Source of the DNA: Armatimonadota bacterium
GTDB lineage: Bacteria; Armatimonadota; SYMT01
Assembly (NCBI GenBank): GCA_046292385.1
Contig: JBKBRF010000004.1
Coordinates: 160,001 to 224,000 of the forward strand
Reading direction: 5' to 3'
Length of the DNA stretch: 64,000 nt
Shown here piece by piece: positions 5,359-45,800 of the stretch (within the stretch, counting starts at the first letter, position 1; every line of letters begins with the position of its first letter). The notes beneath the pieces are model-generated. The model saw only the letters and a program-made list of their open reading frames with translations. It did no database searches and was not told where the DNA came from. The position numbers and the translations under genes were made by a program.

Positions 5359-5640
5359 GGCGTCTGCAGGCCCAGCCGCAGGCTGGGCTGGAGGAGGCCA
5401 CCTGTGACCGCCCCTGGGCGCAGGGGCGGTAGCTCGACGGCGGTCGATTCAGCCCGTGATCCGCACTCCTGATGAAATCCGTCGCGGTGGCGCGGGAAGA
5501 GCCTTTCGGAGCGCACTCCCGGAGCAGCCCGCTAACGGAGCGAAGCGGAGTGTGAAAGGGCCGCGGAGGGCTTTCGCCGCGGGAGGGCTGAAGCGGCCGA
5601 CTAGGGCTCGGGGTCGGGCTTTCGGTACGGACGCTGCCTC
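5359..5640 (+). repeat. Structured intergenic element, copy A
   Basis: Shares TGTGAC hairpin, GATTCAGCCCGTGA, GGCGCGGGAAGAG, AAAGGGCCGCGGAGGGC and CGCGGGAGGGCTGAA blocks with the copies at 10587, 25386 and (more diverged) 45528. Confidence 0.85.
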
Positions 5641-5712
5641 TCGACCGCAGCCTGAGATCAACCCCACGTAGCCGACGCTGCCATCCGCCACGAGAGGTGA
5701 AACACTCGGTCC

Positions 5713-6963
5713 TCAGTCCCCCCGCATCACCCAATCCACTCCAAACCGCGCATGCCGGATCGCCTCCCGCAAGGGCCTCCCTTCCACGTCTTTCTGCGCC
5801 GCACGCTCCGGCAGGCTGTAAGTGTAGGTGGCATGGAGCGCGCCGTCCTTCGCCTCGATGATGGAGGGGTAGTGGAACCCGGTGCCGTCCGGCACGTCCC
5901 GCTCCAGGTGCCGGTTCCAGCGCCACGTCTTGCCGTCGTCGTCGGAGATCGAGACGAGCAGCGAGTGCCGCCCGCGCTCGGTGTCGTTGTTGATCAGGAC
6001 CCAGCGGCCGTCGCGCAGGGTGACGACGTCGACTCCGGAGCCGGGGTTCAGGATCTCGGAGTCGCGGACGGTCGACCAGGTCAGGCCGCCGTCCCGCGAC
6101 TCGCTGTAGAGGAGGCGCTGCGGCGGGCCGCCGTTATCCCGCATGAAGGCGGCGAGGGTGCCGTCCCGCTTCCGAGCGAGGGCGGGCTGCACCGGGCCGT
6201 CGCCGACCAGCGGCGTGCTGGTGGTCCAGGTCTCGCCCCAGTCATCGGTGATCGCCATCAGGGAGAAGTCGAAGCCGTCCGAGTAGAGCGGCAGGATCAT
6301 CCGGCGGCCGTCCAGGATATACGGGTGGACGCGGGGCATCCAGCCGAGGCGGTTGAAGTACCTGTCCGCGGCGTTGGCCCGGCGGCGCTCCAGATACTCC
6401 CGCACCGCCGGCCGCTGCGCCTCCGGGAAGGTGTCGACCCGGCGGAGGTCGCGCTCCACCGCTTCCTGTACGATTTGCGTGAACTCCGGCCCCGGCTTCA
6501 GGTGGACCACCCGCTCCTCCGCCCAGACCGGCGCGGCGCCGCGCCGCTGGTAATTGCGGGAGATGCGGCACTTGAGCAGCGCGGTGTGCCACTCGTTCGC
6601 CTGGATCACCGGCCAGAAAAGCCAGAGCCGCTCCTGCGGGTCGATGATCATGCAGGGGTTGCAGTCCGGAAAGCCGGGAACGTCCGCCATCAGGAACGGC
6701 TCGCTCCAGGCGGTGTCCCGCGGCCGCTTGCGGGCGCCCATGATGCGCACGTCATCCGCCCGCCGCTCGCCGGAGCCGAGGTACCAGCACGCCAGGAGGT
6801 CGCCGTTCGGGCACTGCACCACGCAGCTCCCGTGGCTGTGGAGGTGTCCGAGCGGAAAGATCAGCTCCGACCGCACCGGCGGCGGACTCCCCGCACACGC
6901 CGCCGAAGCCGCCCCCGCGGCGATCCCGCCACCCACCCCCATTAGGAACTCGCGCCGGTCCAT
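5713..6963 (-). CDS. Tat-exported sialidase-family (BNR/Asp-box) protein
   Basis: MDRREFL signal; Asp boxes TDDWGETW, SRDGGLTW, SDDDGKTW; YPS motif. Confidence 0.85.
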   Translation of the reverse strand: MDRREFLMGVGGGIAAGAASAACAGSPPPVRSELIFPLGHLHSHGSCVVQCPNGDLLACWYLGSGERRADDVRIMGARKRPRDTAWSEPFLMADVPGFPDCNPCMIIDPQERLWLFWPVIQANEWHTALLKCRISRNYQRRGAAPVWAEERVVHLKPGPEFTQIVQEAVERDLRRVDTFPEAQRPAVREYLERRRANAADRYFNRLGWMPRVHPYILDGRRMILPLYSDGFDFSLMAITDDWGETWTTSTPLVGDGPVQPALARKRDGTLAAFMRDNGGPPQRLLYSESRDGGLTWSTVRDSEILNPGSGVDVVTLRDGRWVLINNDTERGRHSLLVSISDDDGKTWRWNRHLERDVPDGTGFHYPSIIEAKDGALHATYTYSLPERAAQKDVEGRPLREAIRHARFGVDWVMRGD

Positions 6964-7130
6964 GCTCGCTCTCCCGTTTCGCTCTTTGCCTGACAGGGAG
7001 GCGGTTCGCCGCAGGGACCACGCTTCCATCCACGGAACTGGGCTCCATCGGACGCCCCGCCGGCGGAAGCGCTGAATGCCGCTTCAAACTCAGCCGCGTG
7101 CGCCATGTCCCTGATGGATAGAGGCTGCGG

Positions 7131-7649
7131 ATGATGGACTGGACCTCACTCTCCCTCGAATCAGCGAAGCCGGCACTCGCGTGGATGCAGGAGCCGGAAT
7201 CGCTCTTCCGGAAACCGGAGTACCGGAAGCGTCCGGGCGACGCCTGGATCGGACCGTTCTTCCGAGCGCTGGACGAGGGCCTAACCGAGCTGTGCGCGCA
7301 GGGACAGCAAGCCTTTGACCGCAGCGCCGTGACGATCGTCCAGCAGCTTCAGGTCGAGCTTGCCGAGCACGCGCGCCAGTACAACGTCACTGGGTTCTCC
7401 GCCTCGATCGAGGCAGGGCTCAGCGGCGACCACTGGTTCCTTCTGAATCACCGCTCATGGATCGAAGCCTACCTCCGCGCGCCGCGGCTCATCGAGCGAG
7501 TGATTGAGTATCCTCCGGAGGTGCTGGCGCGGATCGAAGCTGAGGACACGCTCCTGAGGTCGGTTGGCTCCCGCCTCCAGGAACTGCAACCGGAGTCACC
7601 AAGCGGGCGTGAGCCGCCGCATCACTGGTGGTGGCACGGAGAGGGGTAG
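7131..7649 (+). CDS. Hypothetical protein
   Basis: 172-aa ORF with GAGG upstream; ends PPHHWWWHG; no family recognised. Confidence 0.6.
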   Translation: MMDWTSLSLESAKPALAWMQEPESLFRKPEYRKRPGDAWIGPFFRALDEGLTELCAQGQQAFDRSAVTIVQQLQVELAEHARQYNVTGFSASIEAGLSGDHWFLLNHRSWIEAYLRAPRLIERVIEYPPEVLARIEAEDTLLRSVGSRLQELQPESPSGREPPHHWWWHGEG

Positions 7650-7688
7650 GGTGCGGTTTTTCTGGAACCGGCAATGAGAGGGAAGAGG

Positions 7689-8810
7689 ATGCGACGACGC
7701 GAGTTTCTTTCGTGGAGCGGCGGACTGGCGGCGGGACTGCTGGCGGTCCGCTCCGAGGCGGCGCAGGCGCGGCCGGAGGTGGATGGCGGGCTGGCGTGGT
7801 ACGACGTGCAGCAGTGGGGGGTAGAGGGCAAGGGCTGGCGGGAGACGGCGCGGTACTTCGACCGCCTCCCGTCACGCGCCGAGGGCGTGGTACGGGATCC
7901 GGTCTGGAGCCTGAGCCGCCACTCCGCGGGCATGCTGGTTCGGTTCGAGACCGACGCGCCCGCGATCCACGCGCGCTACTCCCTCCTCTCCGCCAACCTG
8001 GCGATGCCGCACATGCCGGCGACCGGCGTGAGCGGGCTCGACCTCTACGCGCGGGCCGAGGAGGGCCGCGACCGCTGGCTCGCCGTGGCACAGCCGCGGG
8101 ACCGGGAGGTGGAGGTGCGGCTGGCGCAGGGGATCGACCCCACTCCGGAGGGCCGGCCCCGGCTCTACACCATCTACCTGCCGCTCTACAACGGCACGGA
8201 GACGCTCAAGATCGGGGTCGATCCGCAGGCCCGCTTCCGACCGGTGCCGCCGCGGGAGGAGCGGCCGATCGTCTTCTACGGCACGTCGATCATGCACGGC
8301 GCCTGCGCGTCGCGGCCCGGGATGTCGATCTCCGCCATTCTCGGGCGGCGGCTGGAGCGCCCGACGATCAACCTTGGCTTCTCCGGAAATGGGAAGATGG
8401 AGGCGGAGGTCGGCGCGCTGCTGGCGGAGCTCGACCCGGCCGTCTACGCGATCGACTGCCTCCCGAACATGTCGCCGGAGGAGGTCGCCGCCCGCACGGA
8501 GCCGCTGGTGCGGCAGCTCCGGAAGGCACGGCCACAGACGCCGATCCTGCTGGTGGAAGACCGGACGTTCACCCAGGCGCGGTTCCACCGGAACGTCCGG
8601 GAGCAGCACGCGCAGCGGCGCGCCGCCCTGCGGGAGAGCTACGAGCGGTTGGTGAAAGACGGCGTGCGCCGGCTCGGCTATCTCCGCGGAGAGGAGCTGC
8701 TGGGCGATGACGGCGAAGCGGCGACCGACGGCTCCCATCCGAACGACCTGGGGATGGTGCGCTACGCGGACGCCTACGAGCGGCCGCTGCGGCGACTGCT
8801 CCGGAGCTGA
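7689..8810 (+). CDS. Tat-exported SGNH/GDSL hydrolase with N-terminal GxDLY domain
   Basis: MRRREFL signal; GLDLY; YGTSIMHG block I; NLGFSG; DGSHP catalytic motif. Confidence 0.9.
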   Translation: MRRREFLSWSGGLAAGLLAVRSEAAQARPEVDGGLAWYDVQQWGVEGKGWRETARYFDRLPSRAEGVVRDPVWSLSRHSAGMLVRFETDAPAIHARYSLLSANLAMPHMPATGVSGLDLYARAEEGRDRWLAVAQPRDREVEVRLAQGIDPTPEGRPRLYTIYLPLYNGTETLKIGVDPQARFRPVPPREERPIVFYGTSIMHGACASRPGMSISAILGRRLERPTINLGFSGNGKMEAEVGALLAELDPAVYAIDCLPNMSPEEVAARTEPLVRQLRKARPQTPILLVEDRTFTQARFHRNVREQHAQRRAALRESYERLVKDGVRRLGYLRGEELLGDDGEAATDGSHPNDLGMVRYADAYERPLRRLLRS

Positions 8811-8823
8811 GCGCGGACGCGGC

Positions 8824-10242
8824 TCACACCCGCTCCAACTCGGTCCAGTGGCTCAGGGCGCTGTCCAGCTTCACGCCGGGCGGCGACTTCACCACCAGCG
8901 CGCCGTTCAGCACGTCGCCGCGGTGGTGCAGGTCGAGGTGGAGGTGGTACGGCCGCCGGTTGGCATCCTCGGTGCCGATGTCGCCCGCGAAGCAGCCGGT
9001 GAGCCAGCCGTCTCGCAGCACCGGCTCGCTCACCAGGGTCGTAAGCTGGCTGCCCAGGCGCACGTGCACGTCGCTGTCCGGGTGGAACGCCAGCGCGAGT
9101 GGCAGCTCGGCCTCGCCGGTGGCGACCGTCCCCCGCCACTCGCCGCGGAGTGTGGGGTAGGGACGCGGCTCGCCGTCGGCCTCCGCAGGCGACGGCTTGC
9201 GGCGCGCCTGCTCCGCGATCCGGGGGACCAGCAGCGCCACCACTTCCCGCGCGACGTCGAACGGAAGGCTGGAGGCGGCGTTGCAGAGGGCGACCACCGC
9301 CAGCCGCTCGGCCGGAACCAGCAGCAGGATCGTGTTCACGCCGTCCATCCCACCGGTATGACTCACGCTCCGCGCGCCTTCCCATTCGTCGCTGATCCGC
9401 CAGCCGACGCCGTAGCCGACCGTCTCGGTGCAGGTGGCGGTCGGCTTCTGCATCTCCTCGATCCCGGCGTGGGTCAGGATCGGCTTCTGGTCCGGCAGCC
9501 CCGCCTGGAGATGGAACATGCCGAAGCGGAGGAGGTCGCGCGCGCTGCAGAAGACGGCGGAGGCCCCGGGGTGATCGAAGTCGTAGAACGGCAGCCGCAG
9601 CCCATCCGGCGCGTAGCGGGCCGCGGCGTACGGCTCCAGCCCGGGGCCGACGCCGACCGAGGCGCGGGTCATTCCGAGCAGTAGGAAGACCTCGCGGCGC
9701 ATGAACTCCGCGAAGCTCTGTCCGGAGACGTGGGAAATCACCTCGTCCAGCACGCCGTAGCCGAGGTTGGAGTACTGATAGCGCTCGCCCGGCGCGGTGA
9801 CCAGGTTCCCGTAGCGGCGCAGCGTCTCGCGGAAGGGTGGACGCCGGCGCGGCTCGTCCTCCGGAAAGAAGTGCCAGTGGAGCGGCAGGCCGGAGGTGTG
9901 GTTCGCCACCCGGCGCAGCGTCGCGTCGTCCGCGTCTCCCACCCGCGCGGTGAGGCGGGCGTCCCCCAGGTAGTCGTGCGCCGGCCGGTCCAGGTCCAGC
10001 TCGCCTCGCTCGTGCAGCACCATCAGCCCGGTCGCCGTGATCGGCTTGGAGATGGAGGCGAGGGAATAGAGCGTGTCCGGCGTGGCGGGAATCCGCGCCT
10101 CGCGGTCCGCCCAGCCGAACGCCTCCTCCCAGAGCGGCTCCCCGTGCTGGGCCACCGCTACGGCGAGCGACGGCAGCGATTCCTCACTCAGGCGGGCGCG
10201 GATCTCTCCGCGAAGGGCGTGGAACAGGTCGGCGCGGCTCAT
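8824..10242 (-). CDS. Serine hydrolase, beta-lactamase class C-like family
   Basis: SISK (SxxK), YSN and HTGG motifs; HTSGL. Confidence 0.9.
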   Translation of the reverse strand: MSRADLFHALRGEIRARLSEESLPSLAVAVAQHGEPLWEEAFGWADREARIPATPDTLYSLASISKPITATGLMVLHERGELDLDRPAHDYLGDARLTARVGDADDATLRRVANHTSGLPLHWHFFPEDEPRRRPPFRETLRRYGNLVTAPGERYQYSNLGYGVLDEVISHVSGQSFAEFMRREVFLLLGMTRASVGVGPGLEPYAAARYAPDGLRLPFYDFDHPGASAVFCSARDLLRFGMFHLQAGLPDQKPILTHAGIEEMQKPTATCTETVGYGVGWRISDEWEGARSVSHTGGMDGVNTILLLVPAERLAVVALCNAASSLPFDVAREVVALLVPRIAEQARRKPSPAEADGEPRPYPTLRGEWRGTVATGEAELPLALAFHPDSDVHVRLGSQLTTLVSEPVLRDGWLTGCFAGDIGTEDANRRPYHLHLDLHHRGDVLNGALVVKSPPGVKLDSALSHWTELERV

Positions 10243-10586
10243 GCGGCTCCTTCCGGGCAACAGCCAGCCGCCGCCCGGCAATCCGGCGGCGGCCACAATC
10301 CGGGTTCCACGTTGGCGGGAGGGGGGAGAACTTCCTGTCTTGCTTGTTCGGCGCGAGGGTCTTCCTCGCCCCGGAGCGAGGTGTCCCCCAATCGTACGCT
10401 GGATTCATCTCCCCGAGGAAGCCACCCCGTGCCCTTGCCGGATACTGTTGGCGAGATCTGGAAGCCGCTCCGAACGCACCGCTGGCGCGGGACGCGAAAG
10501 CAAGCATTCGCACTCCACATGCCGGACCGGAAGGGATTCCCTCGCGCCCGAAGGGAGACTGCCTCGGTGCAGTCGGCGGAGTCCGG

Positions 10587-10860
10587 GGCGTCCGGAGGAG
10601 CAGCCGGAGGCTGCGCCGGAGGATGGCATTTGTGACCACCCCTTGGCCAAGGGGTGGTTGCTCGAAGGGTCGGGATTCAGCCCGTGAACCAGGCTGCTGT
10701 AACGGTAGTGCGCACTGGCGCGGGAAGAGTGAATGGGAGCGCACTCCCGGAGCGGCCTGCTAGCGCCGGAGGCGCGTTAAAGGGCCGCGGAGGGCAATGT
10801 CGCGGGAGGGCTGAATCCCGACACAAGGGCACGGGGTTGACCTCGCGAAATCGACGCTGC
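10587..10860 (+). repeat. Structured intergenic element, copy B
   Basis: Same blocks as copy A; long-range pair TCGGGATTCAGCCC / GGGCTGAATCCCGA. Confidence 0.85.
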
Positions 10861-10936
10861 CACACGGCAAAAAGCGCGACGACTGGCGGCGGGTCGGCCC
10901 CGCGGCATTACACCGCGAGGCCGAACCCAGAACCCT

Positions 10937-12349
10937 CTAGCGCGACACGCTCTTGAACGAAGGCAGCCGCGCCGGCGCCGCCGCCGGGCTCGGGCTTGCT
11001 TCCGGACGTCGGCCCCGGCGGCTGCGGCTGCCGCTGCGGGCGGTGTCCTGCGTGCTTCCGCGCGACTCCCGCACCGGCGCGGAGCTCGTCGGCTGGGACC
11101 GCGTGCCGCTGCTCCGCTTCGGCGGCTGCGGGGCGGGCGCTGCCGGCCGCTCCTGGGCGCGCGGGCGCGCCTGGCCGCGCGGCTGCCGCGGCGGAGGCGG
11201 CACGGAGGGCGCGATGCCGCTCGACTGGTAGTCGAACCCGTCGGCTTTCGCCCGCGGCAGCGACTTCCCGAGCGCCTTCTCGATGTCTCGCAGGCACGCT
11301 TCTTCGTCCGGAGAGACGAACGTCACCGCGTCGCCGCTCGCCTCCGCGCGGGCCGTCCGCCCCACGCGGTGGATGTAGTCTTCCGTCACGTTCGGCACGT
11401 CGAAGTTGACCACGTGGCTCAGCCCGTGGACGTCGATCCCGCGGGCGGCGATGTCGGTCGCCACCAGCACGCGCGCCTCGCCGCTGCGGAAGCTCGCCAG
11501 CGCGTTGGTGCGCTGCGACTGGCTCCGGTTGCCGTGGATCCGCTCGCACGCGACGCCGTGCTTGGAGAGGAAGTCGGCCAGGCGGTTGGCACGGTGCTTG
11601 GTGCGGGTGAAGACGACGACCGACTGCATCTCTTCGCTCTGCAGCAGGTGGAGCAGCAGCGGCGACTTCAGCGTCTGCGCCACGGGGTAGAGCTTGTGCG
11701 CGATCTTCTTGGCGGGAGTCGCCCGGCGCTCGATGTTGAACGTCACCGGATTCACCAGCATGTCGCGCGCCAGCTCCGCGATCGGGCCGGGGAGCGTGGC
11801 GGAGAAGAGCAGCGTCTGCCGCTGCTTCGGCACGTGGCTCAGTACCCGTCGGATGTCCGGCAGGAAGCCCATGTCGAGCATGCGGTCGGCTTCGTCCAGC
11901 ACCAGGTGCTCGATGCCGTCCAGCCGGGCGTAGGGGCGGCTCAGGTGATCGAGCAGGCGGCCCGGCGTGGCGACGAGCACGTCGGCGCCGCGGCGGAACG
12001 CCTCTTCCTGGGGACCCATGCCGACCCCGCCGAAGATGGCGGCGCCGGTCAGGCGCGTGTAGCGGCCCAGGAGCTGCAGGTGCTCGTGGATCTGCGCCGC
12101 CAGCTCGCGGGTGGGGGCCAGGATCAGCGCCCGGGTGCGGCCACGGGGCTGCTTCAGGAGCTGGTTCAGGATCGGCAGGCCGAACGCGGCGGTCTTGCCG
12201 CTGCCGGTGGAAGCGCACCCCAGCACGTCGCGCCCCTCCAGGCCGGGAGGAATGGCGTCGCGCTGGATGGCGGTCGGCTCGGTGAAGCCGAGCTCCTGGA
12301 CCGCCCGCCGCAGGTCGGCGTGCAGCTCGAAAGAATCAAAGTGGGACAT
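10937..12349 (-). CDS. DEAD-box RNA helicase, RhlE-like
   Basis: Q motif, TGSGKT, PTRELA, DEAD, SAT, HRVGRTAR; basic C-terminal tail. Confidence 0.95.
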   Translation of the reverse strand: MSHFDSFELHADLRRAVQELGFTEPTAIQRDAIPPGLEGRDVLGCASTGSGKTAAFGLPILNQLLKQPRGRTRALILAPTRELAAQIHEHLQLLGRYTRLTGAAIFGGVGMGPQEEAFRRGADVLVATPGRLLDHLSRPYARLDGIEHLVLDEADRMLDMGFLPDIRRVLSHVPKQRQTLLFSATLPGPIAELARDMLVNPVTFNIERRATPAKKIAHKLYPVAQTLKSPLLLHLLQSEEMQSVVVFTRTKHRANRLADFLSKHGVACERIHGNRSQSQRTNALASFRSGEARVLVATDIAARGIDVHGLSHVVNFDVPNVTEDYIHRVGRTARAEASGDAVTFVSPDEEACLRDIEKALGKSLPRAKADGFDYQSSGIAPSVPPPPRQPRGQARPRAQERPAAPAPQPPKRSSGTRSQPTSSAPVRESRGSTQDTARSGSRSRRGRRPEASPSPAAAPARLPSFKSVSR

Positions 12350-12641
12350 ATCGATCTCGGCGCGGACTCGCGCTGAAGGGCAGCAAGTCGTCGCGCGAAA
12401 AAAGGCGCCGCATACCGCGGCAAACGGTGTGGAGGCCGTGGAGAAGGGGCAGCCGGGGACCCGCCCTGCGGCTCCGCGGAAGTCAATCCGGGTGCGGCGT
12501 CCCTCCGGGCGGAGGCTGACCGATCACACGGGCCCGGCGGGCGCTGCACGAGGGGGATCCCGATCGGGACCGCCTCCGGAGTGCGCCGCGCACTGCCCAG
12601 AGTGAGGGGGAACAGTGGACCTGGCCGAAGCCAGCACCGTC

Positions 12642-12670
12642 ACGTTATCACGTCCGGAAGATTAAAGCAA
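12642..12670 (-). promoter_or_regulatory. Candidate sigma70 promoter of the helicase (TTGCTT-n17-TAACGT)
   Basis: Read on the minus strand in the AT-richer part of the intergenic region; implies a 5' leader of about 290 nt. Confidence 0.4.
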
Positions 12671-12902
12671 GCAGTTCACTTTGTAGCGTTGAGAGCGAAT
12701 GGCGCTCCTGTCCGTAATCTGGTAGAGTTGAATCGCAAGTTCACATCGGGTTCGTAACGCATTATGGATCACGGAAGCTGTAGCCCGCTCCGCTAGTGCC
12801 TTACCCTCATCGGTGTAGCGCGCTGATAAAACCTGGCAGCGGTGCGGTAGGCCTGCCGCATCCAGCGACCGTCCCCGCTTGGGGAATCTTCCGAGGAACG
12901 TG

Positions 12903-13346: not shown

Positions 13347-13599
13347 TTCCTCCTTCGGCCCGAGTTACACTCGGCGGAGGCTGAAAGTCGACTCACGCGG
13401 GCCGGACTTGCTCCGTAACCCGCGTGAGCGCTCTCGAGCGGGAGGGCCTCGCTCTCCTCTCCCCCGATCGAACCAAACCTGCTGTGCGTCTAGGCCCCGG
13501 GGCTTCTCCGGGGCCGTCCGCTGCGCGCGGGTGGAATACAACGTCCTGCAGCCGGCGCTGTGCGGACGGTCTAGGGATGTTTAGGAAAGGTGGAAGATC

Positions 13600-14202: not shown

Positions 14203-14212
14203 CCCTTCGATT

Positions 14213-14297: not shown

Positions 14298-14311
14298 TCC
14301 TCCGCCCGCTC

Positions 14312-25279: not shown

Positions 25280-25385
25280 GACGGGGGGTAGTTCTCTCGT
25301 TCCCTGGTGGTTCCCCTCCGGTGCGTTGGTCTTCTTGTTGGTGGGCAGAGGGTCGACTCCGGTGTGGGGTGTTGCTTGTCGATGA

Positions 25386-25666
25386 GCAGCGATGATTCCG
25401 TGGGTCCGACCCGGCGCCCTAGTTCCGGGATTCAGCCCTCCCGCGACGAAGGCCCTCCGCTGGCCCTTTCACACTGCGCTTCGCTCCGTTAGCGGGCCGC
25501 TCCGGGAATTGGTAACGGGGGCGCTCTTCCCGCGCCACTTTCGTGATCTCCCCACCGGCTCTGTTCACGGGCTGAATCCCGGCCCGTCGAGCGACGGCCC
25601 CTGACGCCCAGGGGCCGTCACAGGTGGCGCCCTTCGGAGCTGCCTGCGGCTGCTCCTCCGGACGCC
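25386..25666 (-). repeat. Structured intergenic element, copy C
   Basis: Reverse complement carries the same blocks as A and B; pair CCGGGATTCAGCCC / GGGCTGAATCCCGG. Confidence 0.85.
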
Positions 25667-25879
25667 TGGAGTTCTAGGCTGGGTTTGCGGCGAGAGGGAC
25701 GACTTGCGTACTCCGTCGCCGACATCTACGGGGAGGTCCCCGAAGGGGGCCCCCCATACGGGGGATGAAACTTGGTGCGGTTGTTGCCGCGGTTTCAACC
25801 GCCCGGAAAGCGGGCAGGCTTCCGGCCGTCGTGTCGTCGAACCCCTTTGCGTTGGTTGTCTGCACGAGGGGAGGGCGGC

Positions 25880-33441: not shown

Positions 33442-33445
33442 GAAG

Positions 33446-35395: not shown

Positions 35396-35448
35396 GAGAA
35401 AGCGCCCCAGCCGAAGCCGGGGCGCTCGAAGGTGGGGATTGGCCGCGG

Positions 35449-37901: not shown

Positions 37902-38051
37902 CAGACAAGCTCGCAGAGGGAAGATGAGAGAAGAGAGCAATTGATACCGGTGGGCCGGCTCTTCTCCCGTCTCCCTTCTACTCTCTCGCTTCTTCAAGTC
38001 TTGAAACCGGCAGTAACGGAGGAGCCCGGGGCGCCGCTCCCGCGGGCGGCG

Positions 38052-38627
38052 ATGTGGGCGCTTTGCGGCTGGCTGTGGGTTGCAGCGGCTTCCCAGGTGT
38101 TCTTTCTGGCGCACTGGCCGATGTACCTGTACGGGGTAAGCATCGAGCGGCTCCCGGCGCTGGGGGTGGCGCTGCTCCGGATGGCGGTCTACAGCAGCCT
38201 GGCGTGGGGGATTGCGCAGCGCGCCCCGGCCGCGTGGGGCGCGACCATCCTGGAGCTGTGGCGCTCCCTGCTCGCGCTGCTGGTGGTAATGGTCGTGCGG
38301 AGCTCCGCGGGCGGGGGAGACTTCTACCCGGCGGCGTGGGCCCAGGGGCTGCTGAGCGGAGCGCTCCCGAGCCTGTTCCTGGTGAGCGCGGCGCTCTGGA
38401 GCGGCTGGCGACCGGGCGGGGAGCTGGAGCTGGCGGTCGCGGTGGCGGTCCGGCTGCTTGCCGGCGGGGCCGGAGTGGCCGCGATCTGGCTGCGATCCGC
38501 GTACTGCTGGTTCGGAGCGCCCGCGCCGACGTGGCGCGCGGTCGGCGCCTGCGGGGCGGGCGGCGCGGCCTGGCTGCTCGCCGCGGAGCTTGCGGCGGTC
38601 TGGTGGTCGCTGCGGGGCGGAGGATGA
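38052..38627 (+). CDS. Hypothetical membrane protein (start uncertain)
   Basis: Several hydrophobic helices; stop overlaps the next ATG. Confidence 0.55.
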   Translation: MWALCGWLWVAAASQVFFLAHWPMYLYGVSIERLPALGVALLRMAVYSSLAWGIAQRAPAAWGATILELWRSLLALLVVMVVRSSAGGGDFYPAAWAQGLLSGALPSLFLVSAALWSGWRPGGELELAVAVAVRLLAGGAGVAAIWLRSAYCWFGAPAPTWRAVGACGAGGAAWLLAAELAAVWWSLRGGG

Positions 38628-39181
38628 TGCGCGCTTGGCGAGCCAGTTCGGGGCTGGGAGTGCTCTCCTGGGTGGGGATGGCGTGCGTCTACTCCGCCGC
38701 GCTCTGGCTGCTGGGCCTGTTCCTGAGCGCCTTCGGCGGGTGGCCGGAGGGCGCGGTGGCGATGGCGCTCCGGATGGCCGGCACCCTGGCGCTCGGCGTG
38801 GGCCTCTGCGCGTTGGAGCGCTGGGCCTGGGCCACCGCCGTCTGCCTCGCCGGGCTTTACGCGGTGGTGAGCGTGGGGTGGGCGGCGACCGCCGGCTGGG
38901 CGTGGCTCTCGGCGCGGCCGGGGACCCTCTCCTGGATGCCGGTGTTCCTGGGCCTGAACCTGGAGAGCTGCGCCCGGCTCTCCGTGCTGGCGGTGGCGGC
39001 CGCCCTGGTGAGCGGCGGTCTCTGTTATCTGCTCTGGCGCGCGCAGCCGGAGTACGACGTCCCCTACCGGCGCCCGTACACGGTGCTCTTTCAAGATGGC
39101 GCGCCTAGGGCGCTGCTGCTGGTGGCGATCGACGCCTTCCTCGGCGCCGCCTGGTGGGCCGCCGCCGCGGTCGGCGGTTGA
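38624..39181 (+). CDS. Hypothetical membrane protein
   Basis: MMRAWRAS start; about five TM helices; lies directly before the plsY fusion. Confidence 0.6.
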   Translation: MMRAWRASSGLGVLSWVGMACVYSAALWLLGLFLSAFGGWPEGAVAMALRMAGTLALGVGLCALERWAWATAVCLAGLYAVVSVGWAATAGWAWLSARPGTLSWMPVFLGLNLESCARLSVLAVAAALVSGGLCYLLWRAQPEYDVPYRRPYTVLFQDGAPRALLLVAIDAFLGAAWWAAAAVGG

Positions 39182-39276
39182 TCCGGCCCCGCGCAGAACG
39201 GCGTTCCCCCCGCGGCCGGGTGGGGGTATGATTGCTCGAACAGGAGGAGCCGATCGGCGGCTCCTGTGGTACGAAT

Positions 39277-41067
39277 ATGCCTGACGGTCTTCGCCTGGCA
39301 CTACCCATCCTCATCGGGTACGTGCTCGGCTCCATTCCCTTCGGATACGTGGTCGTGCGCCTGATGCGCGGGATCGACATCCGGGAGTACGGGTCCCACA
39401 ACATCGGCGCCACCAACGTCCTGCGCGTGGTGGGGTGGTTTCCGGCGCTGCTCACGCTGCTGGGCGACATCGGCAAAGGCGCGGTGCCGCCGCTCCTGGC
39501 GGCTTCGAGTCTCTTCAGCGTGGGCCAGGTGAACGCGTGGGTGGTGGTCCTCTCCGCCCTGGCGGCGATCTGGGGCCACGCCTACTCCGGCTTCTTCTAC
39601 CTGCGGGAGCGCCGCTTCGCGCGCGGCAAGGCGGTAGCGACCGGCCTCGGCGCGGTGATCGGGTTCGTCGCCTCCGGGCAGGTCTGGTGGCCCGCCCTGG
39701 CCGCCGTGACCGCGGTCTGGTTCTCCGCCATCCTCCTGCCCCGGCTGGTGAGCGGCAAGCTCGGCTGGGTTTCGCTCGCCTCGATCCTCGCCGCGGTCTC
39801 GCTGCCGATCTGCTTCTGGATCGTGGGCGCTGCGTATCCGTACGTCCTCTTCGGCGCGGCCGCCGCGCTGTTCGTGACCTGGAAGCACAAGGAAAACATC
39901 GGGCGGCTGCTCGATGGCGTGGAGCCGCGCCTGGGGGAACGGCTGCCCCTGGCGGGAGTAGATGAGGACGAGCTGTCCTGCGCGTTCATGGTGCACGCCA
40001 TGACCCCAGACGATTGGTGGCAGACGCGGCGCTTCTCCTGGGCGGTACGACTGTATCGTGCCGGCCTCATCCCGCTGGGGGTTCTTAAGCGGCTGATGTA
40101 TTACGTGCGACCGATCAAGACCGATACGATCCGCGGCATCCGCGCCGCGGATGGCCGCACGGTAGAGGTCCACCTGATCGCCGTTCCCTGGCTCCCGGAG
40201 ATGATCAAGGCGAATCCGAAGATGGCGGTGGTCCGCGCGGCGCAGGCGGCGCGGGTAGGCCGCGACCTGGGCGCGCGCTGCATGGGCCTCGGCGCCTTCT
40301 GGAGCGTGGTGGGGAACAAGGGGAAGGAAGTGCAGGACGCCGCCCCCTTCATCCCGATCACCAACGGTGGAGGCTACACCGCCGGCAGCGTAAAGCAGGC
40401 GGTGCCGATGGTCTTTACCAAGCTGCGCGCGCGCGGCGTGGATCCGGAATCGGCCACCGCCGCCGTGGTGGGCGCGAACGGCGTGGTCGGTTTCGGAATC
40501 TGCCGTCAGCTCGCCGGACGCGTGCGGCGGCTGGTGATGGTGGGGACCGATGCCGAGCGGCTGGAGCGCTCCGCGGCGCGCCTCCGCCGCCGCGGCGGCC
40601 CTGCCGAGACCGAAGTGGTGGTGACCACCGACGTCGCCCTCTGCGACGAGGCCGACGTGATCTTCGCCGCCACCTCCACCGTGGAGCCGGTGCTGTTCCC
40701 GCCTCACGTGAAGCCCGGCGCCATCATTTACGACCTCGGCCGGCCCGCCGACGTGGACGACTCCGTGCTCGACGTCCCGGGTGTCTCCGTGATTCCGGGC
40801 GGCGTAGTCCGGCCTCCCGGTCGCATGGAGCACCGGCTCGACACCCACTTTGGCGAAGGGCAGATCCCGGCCTGTATGGCGGAGACGATCCTGATCGCCC
40901 TGGACGAGTGCTACGACCGCTGCAGCCTGGGCGAGGGCACTCGCGGCGAGGACATCGACTACTTCGTCGACCTCGCGGAGCGGCTCGGGTTCCAGGTGGT
41001 GGATGAAGCGATCCGGCCGCAAGAGCCGGCCCCCGCCACCGTGATGGCCCCCGTCCGCGCGAGCTAA
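39277..41067 (+). CDS. plsY: PlsY glycerol-3-phosphate acyltransferase fused to an acyl-ACP-reductase-like dehydrogenase
   Basis: GSIPFG, GSHNIGATN, GKAVAT, HKENI; then GLGAFWSVVG, TNGGGYT, VVGANGVVG, DLGRPADV, ACMAE. Confidence 0.85.
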   Translation: MPDGLRLALPILIGYVLGSIPFGYVVVRLMRGIDIREYGSHNIGATNVLRVVGWFPALLTLLGDIGKGAVPPLLAASSLFSVGQVNAWVVVLSALAAIWGHAYSGFFYLRERRFARGKAVATGLGAVIGFVASGQVWWPALAAVTAVWFSAILLPRLVSGKLGWVSLASILAAVSLPICFWIVGAAYPYVLFGAAAALFVTWKHKENIGRLLDGVEPRLGERLPLAGVDEDELSCAFMVHAMTPDDWWQTRRFSWAVRLYRAGLIPLGVLKRLMYYVRPIKTDTIRGIRAADGRTVEVHLIAVPWLPEMIKANPKMAVVRAAQAARVGRDLGARCMGLGAFWSVVGNKGKEVQDAAPFIPITNGGGYTAGSVKQAVPMVFTKLRARGVDPESATAAVVGANGVVGFGICRQLAGRVRRLVMVGTDAERLERSAARLRRRGGPAETEVVVTTDVALCDEADVIFAATSTVEPVLFPPHVKPGAIIYDLGRPADVDDSVLDVPGVSVIPGGVVRPPGRMEHRLDTHFGEGQIPACMAETILIALDECYDRCSLGEGTRGEDIDYFVDLAERLGFQVVDEAIRPQEPAPATVMAPVRAS

Positions 41068-41100
41068 CCCCGCCGGCGGGCTTTTTCTTCCATCGAATTC

Positions 41101-41156
41101 GGAACCAACGCGCCGTTTCTCCGTCTTATTAGATGGATGGCTAATTGTCTAATTGC
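41101..41156 (+). promoter_or_regulatory. ECF-type promoter with adjacent AT-rich ArsR operator candidate
   Basis: GGAAC-n16-CGTC followed by ATTAG...CTAAT inverted and direct repeats just upstream of sdpR. Confidence 0.5.
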
Positions 41157-41165
41157 GGGGAGCCG

Positions 41166-41495
41166 ATGGACCAGGTTTTCAAGGCGTTGGCCGATCCGAC
41201 GCGGCGCGAGATCTTGCGGCTGCTCGGCGGCGGAGAGCTGACCGCGGGGCAGCTCTGCGAGCGGTTCGAGATCAGCGCGCCGTCGATGTCGCACCACTTC
41301 AACGTGCTGAAGCAGGCGGATCTGATCAGCGCGCGCCGGGAGGGTCAGCAGATCTACTACGCGCTCAACACGACGGTGGCGCAGGATGCCCTGGCGGCGC
41401 TCTGGGACCTGCTCCAGCCGGCCGCGCGGTCATCCGCGGACCGGGTGCGCGCGCCGGCTGGGGATGCGACGAGAAAGGACGAGGTGGGACGATGA
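41166..41495 (+). CDS. sdpR: ArsR-family autorepressor, SdpR-like
   Basis: FKALADPTRREIL, SMSHHFNVLK, GQQIYYALNTTV. Confidence 0.85.
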   Translation: MDQVFKALADPTRREILRLLGGGELTAGQLCERFEISAPSMSHHFNVLKQADLISARREGQQIYYALNTTVAQDALAALWDLLQPAARSSADRVRAPAGDATRKDEVGR

Positions 41496-42145
41496 GGACC
41501 TGGACTTCGCTGGCGTTGAGCCTGGCGGCGGCACTTGGGGCACTCGCCTACGGGCTGGCGATCTACGGCGCGCTGCCGGAGCTGATCCCCACCCACTGGA
41601 ATCTGCAGGGCGAGGTGGATGGCTGGATGCCGAAGTCGCTGGCGGTCTGGCTGAGTCCCGCGCTCGCGATCGGGTTTACGCTGCTGATGCAGGGGCTGCG
41701 AGCGGTTTCGCCGGTGCGGTACCGGGTGGAGCCGTTCCTGCCGACGTTCAACTACGTCGTCCTCCTGGTGGCGGGGCTCTTGGCCTCCCTGCACGTGGTT
41801 TCACTGCAGGCGGCACTGCATCCGGACCTCGAGTCCGGGCGCGTGGTGGTCGGCGGGCTGCTGCTGTTCTTCGGACTGCTCTCCAACGTGCTGGGCAAGG
41901 TGCGGCGCAACTTCTGGGTCGGATTCCGGACGCCGTGGACGCTCGCGAGCGACCGGGTGTGGGTTGCCACCCACCGCCTGGCGGCCCGGCTCGGGGTGGT
42001 GGTGGGGATCGTGGGCGTGCTGATGCTCTGGCTCGGGGCGCCGGTGCCGCTGGCGTTCGTGCTGGTGGTAGCGTGGGTGGTCGTGCCGGTGGTCTACTCG
42101 CTGGTGGTCTACCGGCAGTGGGGCGGCGACGGGCAAGCCGCCTGA
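41492..42145 (+). CDS. sdpI: SdpI-family immunity membrane protein (DUF1648 + SdpI)
   Basis: IPTHWN...VDGW; NFWVGFRTPWTL...W...HR; coupled to sdpR. Confidence 0.85.
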   Translation: MRTWTSLALSLAAALGALAYGLAIYGALPELIPTHWNLQGEVDGWMPKSLAVWLSPALAIGFTLLMQGLRAVSPVRYRVEPFLPTFNYVVLLVAGLLASLHVVSLQAALHPDLESGRVVVGGLLLFFGLLSNVLGKVRRNFWVGFRTPWTLASDRVWVATHRLAARLGVVVGIVGVLMLWLGAPVPLAFVLVVAWVVVPVVYSLVVYRQWGGDGQAA

Positions 42146-42260
42146 GTGGGGTGGGAGGCAGTGAGGGGATTGCCTCCCGCGGACTGTGCTTTCCCGCGAA
42201 CCGTCCCCGCCTGAGCTTCGTTAGACTTCTGGAAACAAACCTGAGGCGAAGGAGCGTGCG

Positions 42261-44243
42261 ATGCGACTGGCTCGGTACCTGGCTCTCCCGCTGCTGCTGG
42301 CGCTGCCGGCGGCGGCCCAGCAGCAGGACGGCATCCTGCGGCAGGATGAGCGGCTTCAGAAGCGCGTGTCGGTGCGGTGGAAGAAGGCGACGCTGCATGA
42401 AGCGCTGGAGGAGTTGAGCCGTGCCACCGGCGCGCGCCTGACCCCCGCGCGGATGCTGGTGGACGAGCCGGTGATGGCCTCCGCCGCGAACGTGCCCGCG
42501 CACGAGGTGATGGAGCAGCTCGCGAAGCTGACGCACTTTACCTGGGCCCGGTCGGGCACCGACCCGATGAAGCCGACCTATCTCTTCTTCCAGGGCAAGG
42601 CGGCGCAGGACGAAGAGCAGGCGGAGATCGACGGCGCCAAGAGAGCGGTGCTGGAGGCGCTCAACCGCGAGGTGGAGAAGTACCGGCGCATCGCCAGCCT
42701 CTCGCCGGATCAGCTCGAGCAGGAGCTGCGGAAGTCGGACCAGCAGCTTTCCGCGCTCTTCCAGAACGGAGGCATCGCGAGCCTCGGCAGCAACGCCGCC
42801 GCCGGCCGTACGATGATGGACGGGATGGCGGTCCGGAGCGTCGCCTCTCCGCTCGGCCGGACTATGGTCCGCATGCTGGACGATCTTTCCCCCGCGGAGT
42901 GGCAGCAGCTCGAGAGCGGGGAGCCGATCGTCTACAGCACCGCGCCCCGCTCCGGAGAGCGCCACCTGGCGCCGGTCTACCGGGACAGCATTCGGGACGC
43001 GGCCCCGACCTTTCCGTTCCCCAAGGAGCTGTTCAACTCGTTCGGCGGGGGCGTTTCCAACGCCATCAACGAGCTCGAAGGCCGGATGAAGAACGAGTGG
43101 GGGAGGGCGACCGGTTACAAGATCAGCGTCAGCCTGAGCCTGAACATGGGCTCTCAGCCGGTCGGGATGCTGCGCGTAAGTCCTGAGCCGATGGGGGGAG
43201 ACGAGGACGTGGCGCCGATCTTTGCGGTCGCCGGCCTCACCATCGTCGGCGCGCCGCAGCTCCTGGAAGAGCCGGAGGAAGATCCGCAGGAGCGAGAGAA
43301 GCGCCTCGCCGCCGACCCTTTCCTGGGCAAGAAAGCGAAGCTGAAGCTGCCGCCGCTGGAGAAGCGGACCGGCTTTCTGGCGATGCTCGGCAACGCCTAC
43401 CGCGTGGCCGAGATCCTTCCGGCGGTGGAAGAGGCGTTCGGAGTGCCGATTGTCGCGGACGCGTACAACCGCAGCGCGATGGCGGTGATCCCGCCACCGG
43501 GAGACCAGGAACTGCCGCTCTTCAAAGTGCTGGATCAGATGGCGGGCAGCACGCGCCGCTGGGAGCGGGACGGGTCCGTGATCCGGCTGCGGAGCCGCAC
43601 CTGGGCACACGACCGCCGCGGCGAGATCCCGTCGCGCTATATGAAGCGGTGGCTGGAGGTGCGGGAGGCGAAGGACGGCTTCACGCTGGAAGACCTCGCG
43701 GAGATCGCCGCAATGCTCCGGGACGAGCAGGTCGAGTCGCTGATGTTCAGCGCCATGGAGCTCGGCTCGACCGACTTTACCGACTTCGTCATGATCAGCG
43801 CGAACCGGGAGATCCTGCGGTTCTACGGAAAGCTCCTCCCGCTCCAGCGGCAGCGCCTCTACAAGGGGGAGCCGATTCCGGTGCGGACCCTCTTTCCGTT
43901 CCAGCAGGCGCTGCTGGCGCGGGTGAACCGCGGGCAGAACCAGTCGCTCTTCTCGCTGGCGATGGGAGCCCGCGCGAGCCGCTCCCCGCAGGTTCTCGCC
44001 GCCGGCTCCATTAGCCTGGAGCGCGCGGAGCCGGGAGGAGGCGCCGCGCCCGCACAGCCCCGAGCGCGCGTGAGCATCAACGTCGGCGGCGCCGGGGCCA
44101 GCGGCAGCGTCAGCGGAATCGGCACCGTCTACACGCTGCGCATCCTGCTGCCGGACGGCCAGAAGGACGAGTTCCGGATCCCGCTCAGCAAACCCTCGCG
44201 CGTGCCGGCAGAGGCACCGGAACCGGTCGAGCGCAAGGAGTAG
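42261..44243 (+). CDS. Secreted hypothetical protein
   Basis: Signal peptide; 660 aa; host-like codon usage; family not recognised. Confidence 0.75.
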   Translation: MRLARYLALPLLLALPAAAQQQDGILRQDERLQKRVSVRWKKATLHEALEELSRATGARLTPARMLVDEPVMASAANVPAHEVMEQLAKLTHFTWARSGTDPMKPTYLFFQGKAAQDEEQAEIDGAKRAVLEALNREVEKYRRIASLSPDQLEQELRKSDQQLSALFQNGGIASLGSNAAAGRTMMDGMAVRSVASPLGRTMVRMLDDLSPAEWQQLESGEPIVYSTAPRSGERHLAPVYRDSIRDAAPTFPFPKELFNSFGGGVSNAINELEGRMKNEWGRATGYKISVSLSLNMGSQPVGMLRVSPEPMGGDEDVAPIFAVAGLTIVGAPQLLEEPEEDPQEREKRLAADPFLGKKAKLKLPPLEKRTGFLAMLGNAYRVAEILPAVEEAFGVPIVADAYNRSAMAVIPPPGDQELPLFKVLDQMAGSTRRWERDGSVIRLRSRTWAHDRRGEIPSRYMKRWLEVREAKDGFTLEDLAEIAAMLRDEQVESLMFSAMELGSTDFTDFVMISANREILRFYGKLLPLQRQRLYKGEPIPVRTLFPFQQALLARVNRGQNQSLFSLAMGARASRSPQVLAAGSISLERAEPGGGAAPAQPRARVSINVGGAGASGSVSGIGTVYTLRILLPDGQKDEFRIPLSKPSRVPAEAPEPVERKE

Positions 44244-44260
44244 CCCACCCGGCCCTCGCC

Positions 44261-44309
44261 GCACGTACACTCTCCCGACGCAGTTAGCGCGCCGGGAGAG
44301 TGTACGTGC
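44261..44309. terminator. 17-bp perfect hairpin after the stop codon
   Basis: GCACGTACACTCTCCCG ... CGGGAGAGTGTACGTGC. Confidence 0.6.
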
Positions 44310-44431
44310 GTCTTACGTTATTGGAAGTTAAAGAAGGGGGATTTGCGTCGACGTCGAATGATCGTCACAAGCACGGCGCGCAGGGAGCAATGCTGCTTCC
44401 GTCAACGTCCGTGTAGAGGAGATTCTCGACG

Positions 44432-45244
44432 ATGAGGCGCAGAGGCTTCACACTCATCGAGCTGCTCGTGGTAATCGCGATCATAGCAATCCTAGCGGCG
44501 ATTCTCTTCCCGGTCTTCGCCCAGGCTCGCGAGAAGGCGCGGCAGGCTTCCTGCCTGAGCAACCTGAAGCAGATCGGCGCAGGGCTGATGATGTACAGCC
44601 AGGACTATGACGAGGAGTATCCGATGGGCACCTACGGGAGCCCGCGGAACTGGGAAGTCAATCCGGACGTGGAAGGCAACCAGGGCTGGAACGACTGCAC
44701 CGGCTTATGGGCCGGCGTGAATCCCGGCGATGGCGGCGCGCCCCTGACCGGATGCGCCTACGGTGCGGACTTCTACCGCACCGTGGCCACGATCCAGATC
44801 GGCCCCTACACCAAGAACATGCAGATCTGGTACTGCCCGTCCGACCCGTATCGCCGCCCGAACCAGAACAACATCCGGCGCGGCCTGCAGTCGTACTTCT
44901 GGTTCCCGAACTGGGTGTTCAACACCTGGTGCCCGGGCAGCACCGCGGGCGCCAGCGGTCCGTATCCGTGCGTCCGGTATCCGGAGGGCTATCGGTCTCT
45001 GCACGACGATCCGCCGAGCGCCAGGACGGATCGGCCCGCCGAGCGGATCATCTTCTCGGAACGCGGGATGTTCGGGTGGTCGGGTCCGGATGCCCATGGC
45101 GGTCGGGCCCCGAACAACGACACCAACCACCAGATGGGCTACAACGCCCTCTACATGGACGGCCACGCCAAGCTGATCCCCTTCCGCAAGAAGTGGACCA
45201 CCGTCCCCGCCACCGGCTGGCCGCCGGAAGACGCGCCGCGCTAG
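44432..45244 (+). CDS. Prepilin-type N-terminal cleavage/methylation protein with H-X9-DG motif (DUF1559-like)
   Basis: [56 protein letters not shown]. Confidence 0.92.
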
Positions 45245-45270
45245 GATTACGGCGTATCTGAAGCGTCAGC

Positions 45271-45307
45271 GCAGCGGCCGCCTTTCTCTCTGAGAGGCGG
45301 CCGCTGC
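45271..45307. terminator. GC-rich hairpin downstream of the prepilin-like gene
   Basis: GCAGCGGCCGCCT ... AGGCGGCCGCTGC. Confidence 0.55.
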
Positions 45308-45527
45308 GTGCTACTGGTCTGTCCAGTTGCCTCTCAGACGTGGGAGTCGGAGTAAGGGAGAGTGCGGGAGTGGGAGAGCCGCTCCCTCGCGGCTGTGATC
45401 AGGTTCCCGGTGAGCAGGTTCCAGGTTCCGAACCCCACCCATCGGGGAGCTCAACCCAACCTGCCACAGCGCGGCTGATGCCGCAACCAAGCTCATGGCG
45501 GCGGGAGAATGCTCGGTTAGTCGAGAT

Positions 45528-45800
45528 CAGCATCGCGGCGAGGGTCCACCCCGCGCCCTCCCCACCCGGAGCGGCCCTCCCGCGTGGGTGGCCCTCCGCG
45601 GCCCTTTCACGCTCCGGCTTCGCCTCCGCTAGCGGGCGCTGCGGGCGTGCTGCCCCAAGCGCTGCGTTCCGCGTCCGAAAGGGGCGTCTACAGCGAGACG
45701 GCGGTTCACGGACCGCTCCGGGCGGCTCAAGCGACCACCCCTCGCAGGGGTGGTCACAAGTGAAACCCTCCAGCTCTGCCTCCGGCAGCGCTTCCGGGCT
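45528..45800 (-). repeat. Structured intergenic element, copy D (most diverged)
   Basis: Reverse complement: TGTGACCACCCCT-GCG-AGGGGTGGTC, CCGTGAA, GTGAAAGGGCCGCGGAGGGC, CGCGGGAGGG; long-range pair rewritten to CCCGGAGCGGTCC / GGGCCGCTCCGGG. Confidence 0.8.

Follow-up and report, generated by a model that had tools for sequence, protein, structure and literature searches.

Repeats lying between bacterial genes, such as the REP, BIME, REPIN, ERIC and Correia sequences, are usually short and simple palindromes. The ERIC/IRU, Correia/NEMIS, BOX and RUP families are modular non-coding stretches of 100-300 bp that fold as RNA if transcribed, and they are either simple imperfect palindromes or miniature inverted-repeat transposable elements (MITEs) bounded by terminal inverted repeats (TIRs). 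HEARO, the omega-RNA of IscB, is large, structured and non-coding, occurs in many copies per genome and often has no adjacent open reading frame (ORF), and the hairpins of the IS608/ISDra2 type are small and lie on one strand at both ends of the element. In this work, we describe a real and previously uncatalogued family of structured repeats in an Armatimonadota bacterium, starting from four copies in a stretch of 64,000 nucleotides (GenBank assembly GCA_046292385.1, contig JBKBRF010000004.1, positions 160,001 to 224,000; the whole stretch is called the window below). Each copy, or arm, folds on one strand, and some arms are joined as head-to-head pairs, here called doublets.

Among described systems, the closest analogue of the element is REPIN/BIME, which is mobilised by RAYT transposases. 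REPs are palindromic and about 20-40 nt in length; the REPIN described in one account is 89 bp long and consists of two REPs forming one near-perfect hairpin (PMC3337134). REPINs are presented as extragenic sequences in hundreds of copies (PMC3337134, PMC3116915), and the element is also extragenic and multi-copy. The same account of REPs and REPINs has inverted doublets as the replicating unit with singlets beside them, structure that is kept as the sequence drifts, long persistence in one lineage, and mosaic combination with other short repeat modules (PMC3337134). The element shares these features: all 27 close pairs are head-to-head, and the whole doublet is shared between copies of the youngest subfamily. 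In contrast to the short palindrome of that account (PMC3337134), the arms of the element are about 250-400 nt long with a multi-helix junction, and they are diverged paralogues (56-69% identity) that fold separately and not on each other. No Y1 gene of this genome is flanked by copies of the element, its doublets are not better conserved than its singlets, and it has no abundant master sequence. Short REPs, pairing between the arms, a flanked RAYT and better-kept doublets define REPINs, and the element, lacking them, is therefore giant-REPIN-like and not a member.

With the PATEs of the IS200/IS605 family (PMC6006769), and with IS608 and ISDra2, the element shares strand-specific folding and the lack of TIRs and target-site duplications (TSDs). 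A replication-orientation bias is expected for IS200/IS605, a weak bias is seen in the element, and Y1 genes are present in its genome; unlike in that family, the arms fold on opposite strands, there is no TnpB, and, should the leading strand be the G-rich one, the bias has the reverse sign to that of the IS608 rule. The element resembles HEARO in its length of more than 200 nt, its multiple copies and its conserved loops with covarying helices, and differs from it in having no Rfam match (HEARO included) and no adjoining nuclease ORF. Orientation to genes is variable both here and in the ERIC/IRU, Correia/NEMIS, BOX and RUP families, none of which is known to have the branched core, the cross-genus loops or the fixed hetero-doublet of the element.

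We assign a probability of roughly 0.55 to the reading that the element is a lineage-restricted, non-coding, non-autonomous mobile repeat, a giant relative in kind of REPIN/BIME, in which the folded single strand is the selected feature and which perhaps moved as single-stranded DNA (ssDNA). The main alternative, which we consider possible but on the whole unlikely, takes each arm to be an expressed structured non-coding RNA (ncRNA), acting in cis (RNA stability, termination, insulation, antisense) or in trans (scaffold or guide for an as yet unrecognised protein), whose copies would be maintained by selection for this function and whose spread would be secondary or long past.

Results

Four copies in the window

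The window (C4:160001-224000 in our own contig labels) belongs to a genome of 7.04 Mb in 91 contigs with 69% G+C, here G000. An earlier note, made from the letters of the window alone, had proposed an intergenic element of roughly 280 bp in four diverged copies. In a genome-wide search with an nhmmer profile built from these copies, all four were found with E-values of 1e-57 to 1e-76; aligned to each other, they have a mean column identity of 72% and long invariant blocks. No fifth copy was found by the profile search in the 64-kb window. The proposed positions stand, but the 3' ends do not, as conservation extends 50-150 nt past them. The copies and their parts are listed below in window numbering, with scores for nhmmer and for a covariance model (CM); types 8 and 2 are the two main clusters of arms, and A5 is our label for an alignment.

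5357..5660, plus strand: copy A, type 8, single; hairpin P0, core and start of the tail (nhmmer C4:165357-165642, or 5357-5642 in the window, 257 bits; CM 165389-165641, 239 bits; the tail end at 5660 is approximate and set by type-8 tail conservation)
5407..5430, plus strand: hairpin P1 of copy A (ACCGCCCCT ... AGGGGCGGT), with the conserved TGTGAC before it (A5 columns 32-40/64-72)
5431..5435, plus strand: 5' strand of the closing helix P2 of copy A, partner 5604-5608 (A5 columns 73-77/301-305)
5441..5455, plus strand: 5' strand of the long-range 15-bp helix P3 of copy A, partner 5585-5599, enclosing about 130 nt (A5 columns 103-117/281-296)
5585..5608, plus strand: 3' strands of P3 (5585-5599) and P2 (5604-5608) of copy A, from sequence and alignment
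10585..10864, plus strand: copy B, type 8, single (nhmmer C4:170585-170864, 251 bits; CM 225 bits)
25382..25669, minus strand: copy C, type 8, single (nhmmer C4:185669-185382, 249 bits; CM 212 bits)
45464..45805, minus strand: copy D, type 2, single, including a conserved 3' tail of about 80 nt assigned by comparison with type-2 tail conservation (nhmmer C4:205805-205540, or 45540-45805 in the window, 196 bits; CM 205523-205772, 193 bits)

A covarying fold on one strand

RNAalifold applied to the four window copies gave 69 pairs, 17 of them with a compensatory change. A larger MAFFT alignment of 86 sequences held the four window copies, two metagenome homologues and, from the 131 other near-full copies, the 80 that made up batches 1, 2, 4 and 5 of the score-sorted list; a 39-pair structure, composed of the RNAalifold consensus and added extensions of P1 and P2, was evaluated on it. 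In this alignment, the core of an arm is about 220 nt long and each arm has at least seven helices. From 5' to 3', an arm consists of a hairpin of variable length (P0), TGTGAC with P1, the core, which is closed by P2 and P3 around a multi-helix junction and carries conserved purine-rich loops, and a 3' tail of 50-150 nt ending in a small hairpin. The inner junction is partly resolved; a CCC stretch may pair with either of two GGG stretches.

The hairpin ACCGCCCCT/AGGGGCGGT with its variants and the long-range helix GGGATTCAGCCC/GGGCTGAATCCC versus CCCGGAGCGGTCC/GGGCCGCTCCGGG, both noticed earlier as covarying, are present and do covary. In P1, both sides have changed in 7 of 9 pairs and 96.8% of cells are paired; for P3, the figures are 10 of 15 pairs and 96.6%. 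In P2, 99.1% of cells are paired, with U-G at columns 76-302 in 84 of the 86 sequences. The minimum-energy fold of copy C contains P0, P1, P2 and P3. Over the whole 39-pair structure, 97.4% of 3343 cells are standard pairs versus 82.4% after shuffling, with none of 500 shuffles attaining the observed figure; pairing falls to 35-51% of cells when partners are slid by 1-3 columns. Changes on both sides affect 22 of the 39 pairs and 495 cells (155 in shuffled data), and the covariation score is 0.425 against 0.152 after shuffling. Three or more pair types occur, for instance, at columns 110-289 (UA 29, AU 28, GC 21, GU 5) and at columns 73-305 in P2 (CG 42, UA 20, AU 19). Per copy, the share of pairs formed is 0.97 at the median and nowhere below 0.85, and at least 90% of pairs are kept in 76 of 84 copies, as would be expected of a functional ncRNA.

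Among 3276 stem cells there are 262 with G·U and 16 with A·C, or 131 versus 16 when pairs with a G·U majority are left out. Because G·U far outnumbers A·C in the stems, the folding strand, which is 41% G, could be assigned, and the fold is on one strand only; the folding energy of single sequences does not discriminate the strands (z = -2.9 vs -2.7). Tolerance of G·U and not of A·C agrees with the ncRNA explanation; however, G·T wobble is tolerated in folded ssDNA also, and the strand asymmetry is therefore no proof of RNA.

The linker blocks TGTGAC, CCGTGA, AAAGG, GGAGGGC and CGCGGGAGGG, described earlier for the four copies, are still conserved in the larger sample and in other genera. These unpaired motifs, held constant while the helices covary, would also suit an ncRNA. 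The earlier failure to recognise a known family is matched by Rfam 15, which gave no match at gathering score in the whole window and, at E<=10 with copies A and C, short noise only, far below the gathering score.

Selection and divergence among copies

Selection on the fold was assessed in 68 nearest-neighbour comparisons (74-97% identity) against a neutral simulation with an equal number of stem substitutions. Stem pairs changed on both sides and still paired number 152 versus about 10 simulated, pairs changed on one side and still paired 75 versus about 79, and pairs disrupted in one copy 82 versus about 316; stem columns have diverged by 0.089 and unpaired columns by 0.164. Judged by these substitution patterns, the fold was under selection on the lineages separating the present copies, and the proposal that structure is selected over sequence is borne out by both the pairing and the compensatory changes.

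The median nearest-neighbour identity is 85.6%, and a relative at 95% or more exists for only 11 of the 135 copies, so that the terminal branches of the copy tree are long. Because of these long branches, much of the selection may have acted on the copies in their present places; a population made up of many lineages that replicate slowly would look similar. With neighbours about 15% different and the fold kept, most copies would still be under selection in place. Such selection after separation speaks for an ncRNA.

Two arm types and a head-to-head doublet

The pairwise identity of the core averages 69% (range 46-98%), and two main clusters were distinguished, type 8 (64 copies) and type 2 (57 copies). 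All 27 pairs of neighbours less than 1 kb apart are head-to-head, none being tandem or tail-to-tail (chance 0.25^27 if orientations were free), and 25 of the 27 join a type 8 arm to a type 2 arm; arms joined in such hetero-doublets are 56-69% identical. In the youngest subfamily, formed by 14 type-8 copies at 90% identity or more, the likeness extends over all of the roughly 805-nt doublet and breaks off sharply beyond it, one end beginning with CACAGCGCGG and the other finishing with GAGTAGTACAGAG. From the extent of this likeness, the copied unit in the youngest subfamily is the whole doublet of about 0.8 kb with discrete ends. New beyond the earlier note are the joining of unlike arms head-to-head, the division into two arm types, the 3' tails and the occurrence in other genera.

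By eye, the doublet spacer holds three small hairpins and no AT-rich stretch. A head-to-head doublet could offer one sense arm to transcription from either side, which would favour an expressed ncRNA; yet the spacer lacks an AT-rich stretch, and a scan of copies A and B found neither a sigma-70-like promoter nor an intrinsic terminator.

ACAGAGG-like heptamer tracts abut many outer ends of doublets, for example on contig C8 near 52951 and 55814, on C10 near 72980 and on C30 near 16828, and the doublet ends are themselves heptamer-like. ACAGA is enriched 4-6 fold near unit ends.

Insertion into a prophage

The clearest evidence for insertion comes from a prophage region at G000:C40:17000-40000, which has a plus-strand late operon with terminase, SPP1-type portal, capsid, head-completion and tail-completion genes and a Rad52-family gene nearby. 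The terminase-portal junction is about 40-50 nt long and empty in the syntenic phage L211, and 356 nt long with one copy in the prophage; the junction between the capsid gene and the next gene is 83 nt long and empty in L211, and 416 nt long with one copy in the prophage. Altogether, 7-8 copies of five clusters lie between the prophage genes, all on the minus strand; an ncRNA would here be antisense to the late operon in every case, which argues against that explanation. Integron attC sites would form an array of same-strand sites between cassettes, next to an IntI integrase; in G000, a same-strand series of copies occurs only on C40, in this prophage operon. The covariance model had no match in 80 IMG/VR loci (887,865 bases) from phages with a terminase 30-60% identical.

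The earlier note had put forward a comparison of empty sites in relatives; the two junctions are empty in phage L211, and synteny with the genomes of relatives is too poor for a precise empty site. The protein left of copy A has no homologue in 5 relatives, and the oxidoreductase right of copy D has orthologues 69-74% identical in 3 relatives with no copy within 1.5 kb, but their neighbours differ and the site is not alignable. Contigs from four public DNA runs are short, and none cleanly bridges or skips a copy. A blastn search of phage and plasmid collections with copy C gave no match.

Family size and genomic context

The earlier expectation of many copies genome-wide was confirmed by 149 profile matches at E<1e-3, of which 135 span at least 200 of the roughly 290 profile positions, and by 142 matches of the covariance model, a number that may be a lower bound, as only 150 candidates were scored with it. 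The density is one copy per 52 kb overall and one per 8 kb on contigs C8 and C40. On gene calls made with our own filter for third-position G+C (GC3), nearly all copies are intergenic. The 135 copies are flanked by convergent (37), divergent (28), tandem-same (30) or tandem-opposite (34) genes, with a flank missing in 6, so that orientation relative to the flanking genes looks random; outside contig C40, local orientation coherence is 8 same versus 9 different.

The largest homologue cluster among 178 proteins within 700 bp of copies has 4 members, and around the window copies the genes are unrelated, coding for a BNR protein, a beta-lactamase-fold protein, a DEAD helicase, an esterase, a DUF1559 protein and an oxidoreductase. 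No protein gene travelling with the element, no shared ORF and no TIR were seen, in agreement with the earlier note, and none of the flanking proteins is a nuclease next to a copy. Given the random orientation and the absence of a recurrent neighbour, the element is neither a regulon leader nor a gene passenger, and both observations speak against an ncRNA. About 140 redundant trans-acting genes would, moreover, leave very weak selection on each.

The folding strand of single copies opposes the locally G-rich strand in 36 cases versus 15, with 30 undecided (p = 0.005).

Spread to other genomes

A strict motif pattern occurs 104 times in G000, is absent from 6 genomes of the same family and 1 of the same order, and has a single, probably chance, occurrence among about 393 other Armatimonadota genomes. 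In all 8 genomes of the class, G000 included, the covariance model, which was built on G000 copies and is hence biased towards them, has 142 matches in G000, 16 in G035, 8 in G021 and 1 in G074; there are none in G005, G048, G086 and G061, and none in the 33 other Armatimonadota searched. Head-to-head pairs are found at 4 loci of G035, with arms of two types by eye. In G021, two same-strand tandem series of three copies, 430-2050 nt apart and not head-to-head, were observed (G021:C236:9048-11983 and G021:C47:3657-4942).

Diverged homologues lie on two metagenome contigs, L100 and L101; their helices have changed in a compensatory manner and their loop motifs are the same, and they are the true homologues among 7 metagenome pattern matches, the other 5 having no profile match. 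L100 was rejected as an orthologous locus, since the sequence flanking it codes for a C-terminal domain that matches 79 places in G000. This domain of about 80 aa (L100:572-823) is present in at least 79 predicted G000 proteins, many longer than 800 aa, and is probably a secretion or sorting tag. A loose pattern scan of genome contigs gave at least 96 stretches (80 loci listed), but the loci fetched had no profile match and were discarded as chance occurrences in GC-rich genomes; the single genome-contig match of a stricter pattern, L097, is not homologous, and the stricter pattern has no match in viral contigs. The papers found by literature searches on repeats in Armatimonadota, judged by titles and abstract openings, describe no such repeats; the motifs themselves are not text-searchable.

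Candidate mobilising enzymes

A transposase, RAYT, TnpB or reverse transcriptase beside the copies, an arrangement envisaged earlier, was not seen: none is adjacent, and G000 has no match to the TnpB zinc-ribbon domain or, at 98.45% completeness and with positive control genomes, to the reverse transcriptase domain RVT_1 (PF00078). A search for the IscB RRXRR family was uninformative, its positive control being silent. G000 does have 2 IS110-family and 5 Y1 transposase matches, two of the Y1 proteins being canonical (C51:25920-26261 and C22:55627-55965); from a Y1 gene to the nearest copy the distance is 5.1, 22 or 48 kb, unless the contig has no copy at all. Across the class, Y1 counts of 5, 9, 6, 4, 1, 1, 0 and 0 loosely follow element counts of 142, 16, 8, 0, 1, 0, 0 and 0. 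In G074, the sole Y1 gene (3261-3599 on L290, which is G074:C207:1-6571) is followed by four REP-like units of 77 nt at 3890-4372, the classical RAYT/REP arrangement, and lies 2.7 kb from the sole copy of the element (6334-6568, at the contig end). This proximity is no more than suggestive, being a single case in a fragmented assembly in which the Y1 flanks carry a different repeat.

Other repeats near the element

A second, unrelated repeat family of about 50-190 nt is built on inverted GTGGAGTGC / GCACTCCAC motifs. A Y1-transposase-like gene of 242 aa has this repeat on either side, and the repeat looks like the cognate one of that gene; it also interrupts two copies of the main element at the P1 loop. 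Its sites, and a hairpin module beside copy D, are as follows.

10476..10525, reverse strand: second repeat family just 5' of copy B
G000:C83:9411-9460 and 10245-10295, C40:35339-35409, C74:20728-20799: other sites of the second repeat family
45816..45864, no strand assigned: short hairpin module directly 5' of copy D, by eye like a reversed type-8 tail end (comparison with the subfamily consensus, no statistics)

An identical stretch of about 120 nt lies at many contig ends (C39:1-121, C61:1-120, C49:4-121, C47:1-117, C38:1-117 and C40:62821-62940), and a related stretch is found near the IS110-family gene on C6; it is probably a recent high-copy insertion sequence breaking the assembly. The host is characterised as a soil and hot-spring bacterium. 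Soil and root metagenomes containing 20-40% of the window's words suggest that close strains exist; no RNA run containing them was among the public runs listed.

Discussion

The earlier note had left a choice between a large structured ncRNA and an element mobilised through RNA or ssDNA. The random orientation, the insertions at prophage junctions and the discrete unit ends favour the mobile side, and copying through RNA is unlikely because the 98.45% complete genome has no reverse transcriptase domain. The lack of RVT_1, the five Y1 homologues and the strand bias of 36 versus 15 may point to ssDNA rather than RNA copying. In the mechanism that we propose, a trans-acting enzyme would recognise the folded single strand, the intermediate would be ssDNA rather than RNA, and single arms may be remnants or independently viable; the unit of the latest copying is the 0.8-kb doublet, in which a type 8 and a type 2 arm meet head-to-head. 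A HUH/Y1 (RAYT-like) transposase is a tentative candidate for the mover, and an enzyme of some other or unknown kind a slightly less likely one.

Several observations weigh against a giant REPIN/BIME-like mobile repeat. All seven Y1 and IS110 genes are more than 5 kb from every one of the 149 profile matches, and the Y1 genes of G000 are flanked by other, different repeat families. Doublet arms score no higher than single arms, unlike in REPINs (median profile scores, paired versus single, of 170 versus 180 bits for type 8 and 129 versus 122 bits for type 2). No TIR or TSD is visible by eye at the ends of the 14 doublets, and no precise empty site is available in relatives, where synteny is too poor. 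The strand bias is weak evidence: it comes from one of several tests and, should the G-rich strand be the leading one here, runs contrary to the IS608 rule. Genes were called with the GC3 filter and no gene finder. The divergence between nearest copies suggests little recent copying, which would fit a long-resident selected element better than an active transposon, and an RNA with its own function would likewise explain why loops are conserved across genera.

A bolder form of the ncRNA explanation, in which each arm would belong to a new class of large bacterial RNA (a ribozyme, or a scaffold or guide for a protein yet to be recognised) whose activity drives or controls its spread or neighbouring expression, appears improbable to us. 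Its model would be HEARO before IscB was understood, and if it were true, the cross-genus loops, the likewise cross-genus hetero-doublet and the in-situ compensation would be signatures of RNA activity and not of transposase recognition.

An ordinary MITE, made of the fused ends of a DDE-type IS and moved by a transposase that binds TIRs in double-stranded DNA, with the structure as incidental palindromy, would account for a short, non-coding, multi-copy and intergenic sequence, and the doublet does have two inverted arms. The inner inverted repeat, however, is helix P3, which covaries in 10 of 15 pairs, the doublet ends are not inverted repeats, no TSD was seen, and the arms are just 56-69% identical. 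Strand-specific wobble pairing is unexpected for a double-stranded protein site, and there is no full-length parent: no minus/plus pair of copies 0.3-6 kb apart, as a parent with a gene between the arms would give, was found. We regard a MITE as very improbable.

A SINE-like retroelement or a derivative of a group II intron or retron, copied via RNA by a reverse transcriptase, would be consistent with the strand-specific fold, the heptamer tracts at some unit ends and the 4-6 fold enrichment of ACAGA, but is hardly credible in a genome without RVT_1 at 98.45% completeness, for an element with no Rfam intron or retron match, whose copied unit has opposite-strand arms such that a single transcript would not fold symmetrically. 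Identity with an Rfam family, a MITE with TIRs and TSDs, or a retroelement was accordingly rejected in each case, there being no Rfam match, no TIR or TSD and no reverse transcriptase.

A CRISPR-linked RNA (a leader or trailer element, or a repeat-carrying decoy), suggested by 4 of the 16 G035 copies, which lie at the ends of two arrays on the arrays' predicted transcribed strand with solitary CRISPR repeats beside them, is extremely unlikely, since G000 has no copy within 11 kb of any of its 2-4 arrays and 12 of the 16 G035 copies and all G021 copies examined lie elsewhere; a general CRISPR link was rejected on these grounds, and the pattern in G035 is read as insertion into tolerant non-coding array DNA with local duplication (families D6-D10). 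The locus itself (L201, G035:C3:827000-840000) is type I-E-like, with cas1, cas2 and two arrays of about 45 and 30 repeats at a 61-nt period.

Compared with the usual intergenic repeats of bacteria, the element stands apart in its branched core of about 220 nt with loops shared across genera, its fixed doublet of two arm types and the clear compensation among about 140 copies. It thus offers a large natural data set on what is selected in such repeats, recognition by a transposase or a local function of the RNA or DNA. If the fold is recognised by a HUH enzyme, the substrate range of that enzyme class would be widened; if the fold is that of an RNA, it would represent a new class of large ncRNA in a poorly studied phylum. 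The covariance model accounts for many long intergenic regions that otherwise appear empty, and it marks insertions in a prophage and at CRISPR arrays.

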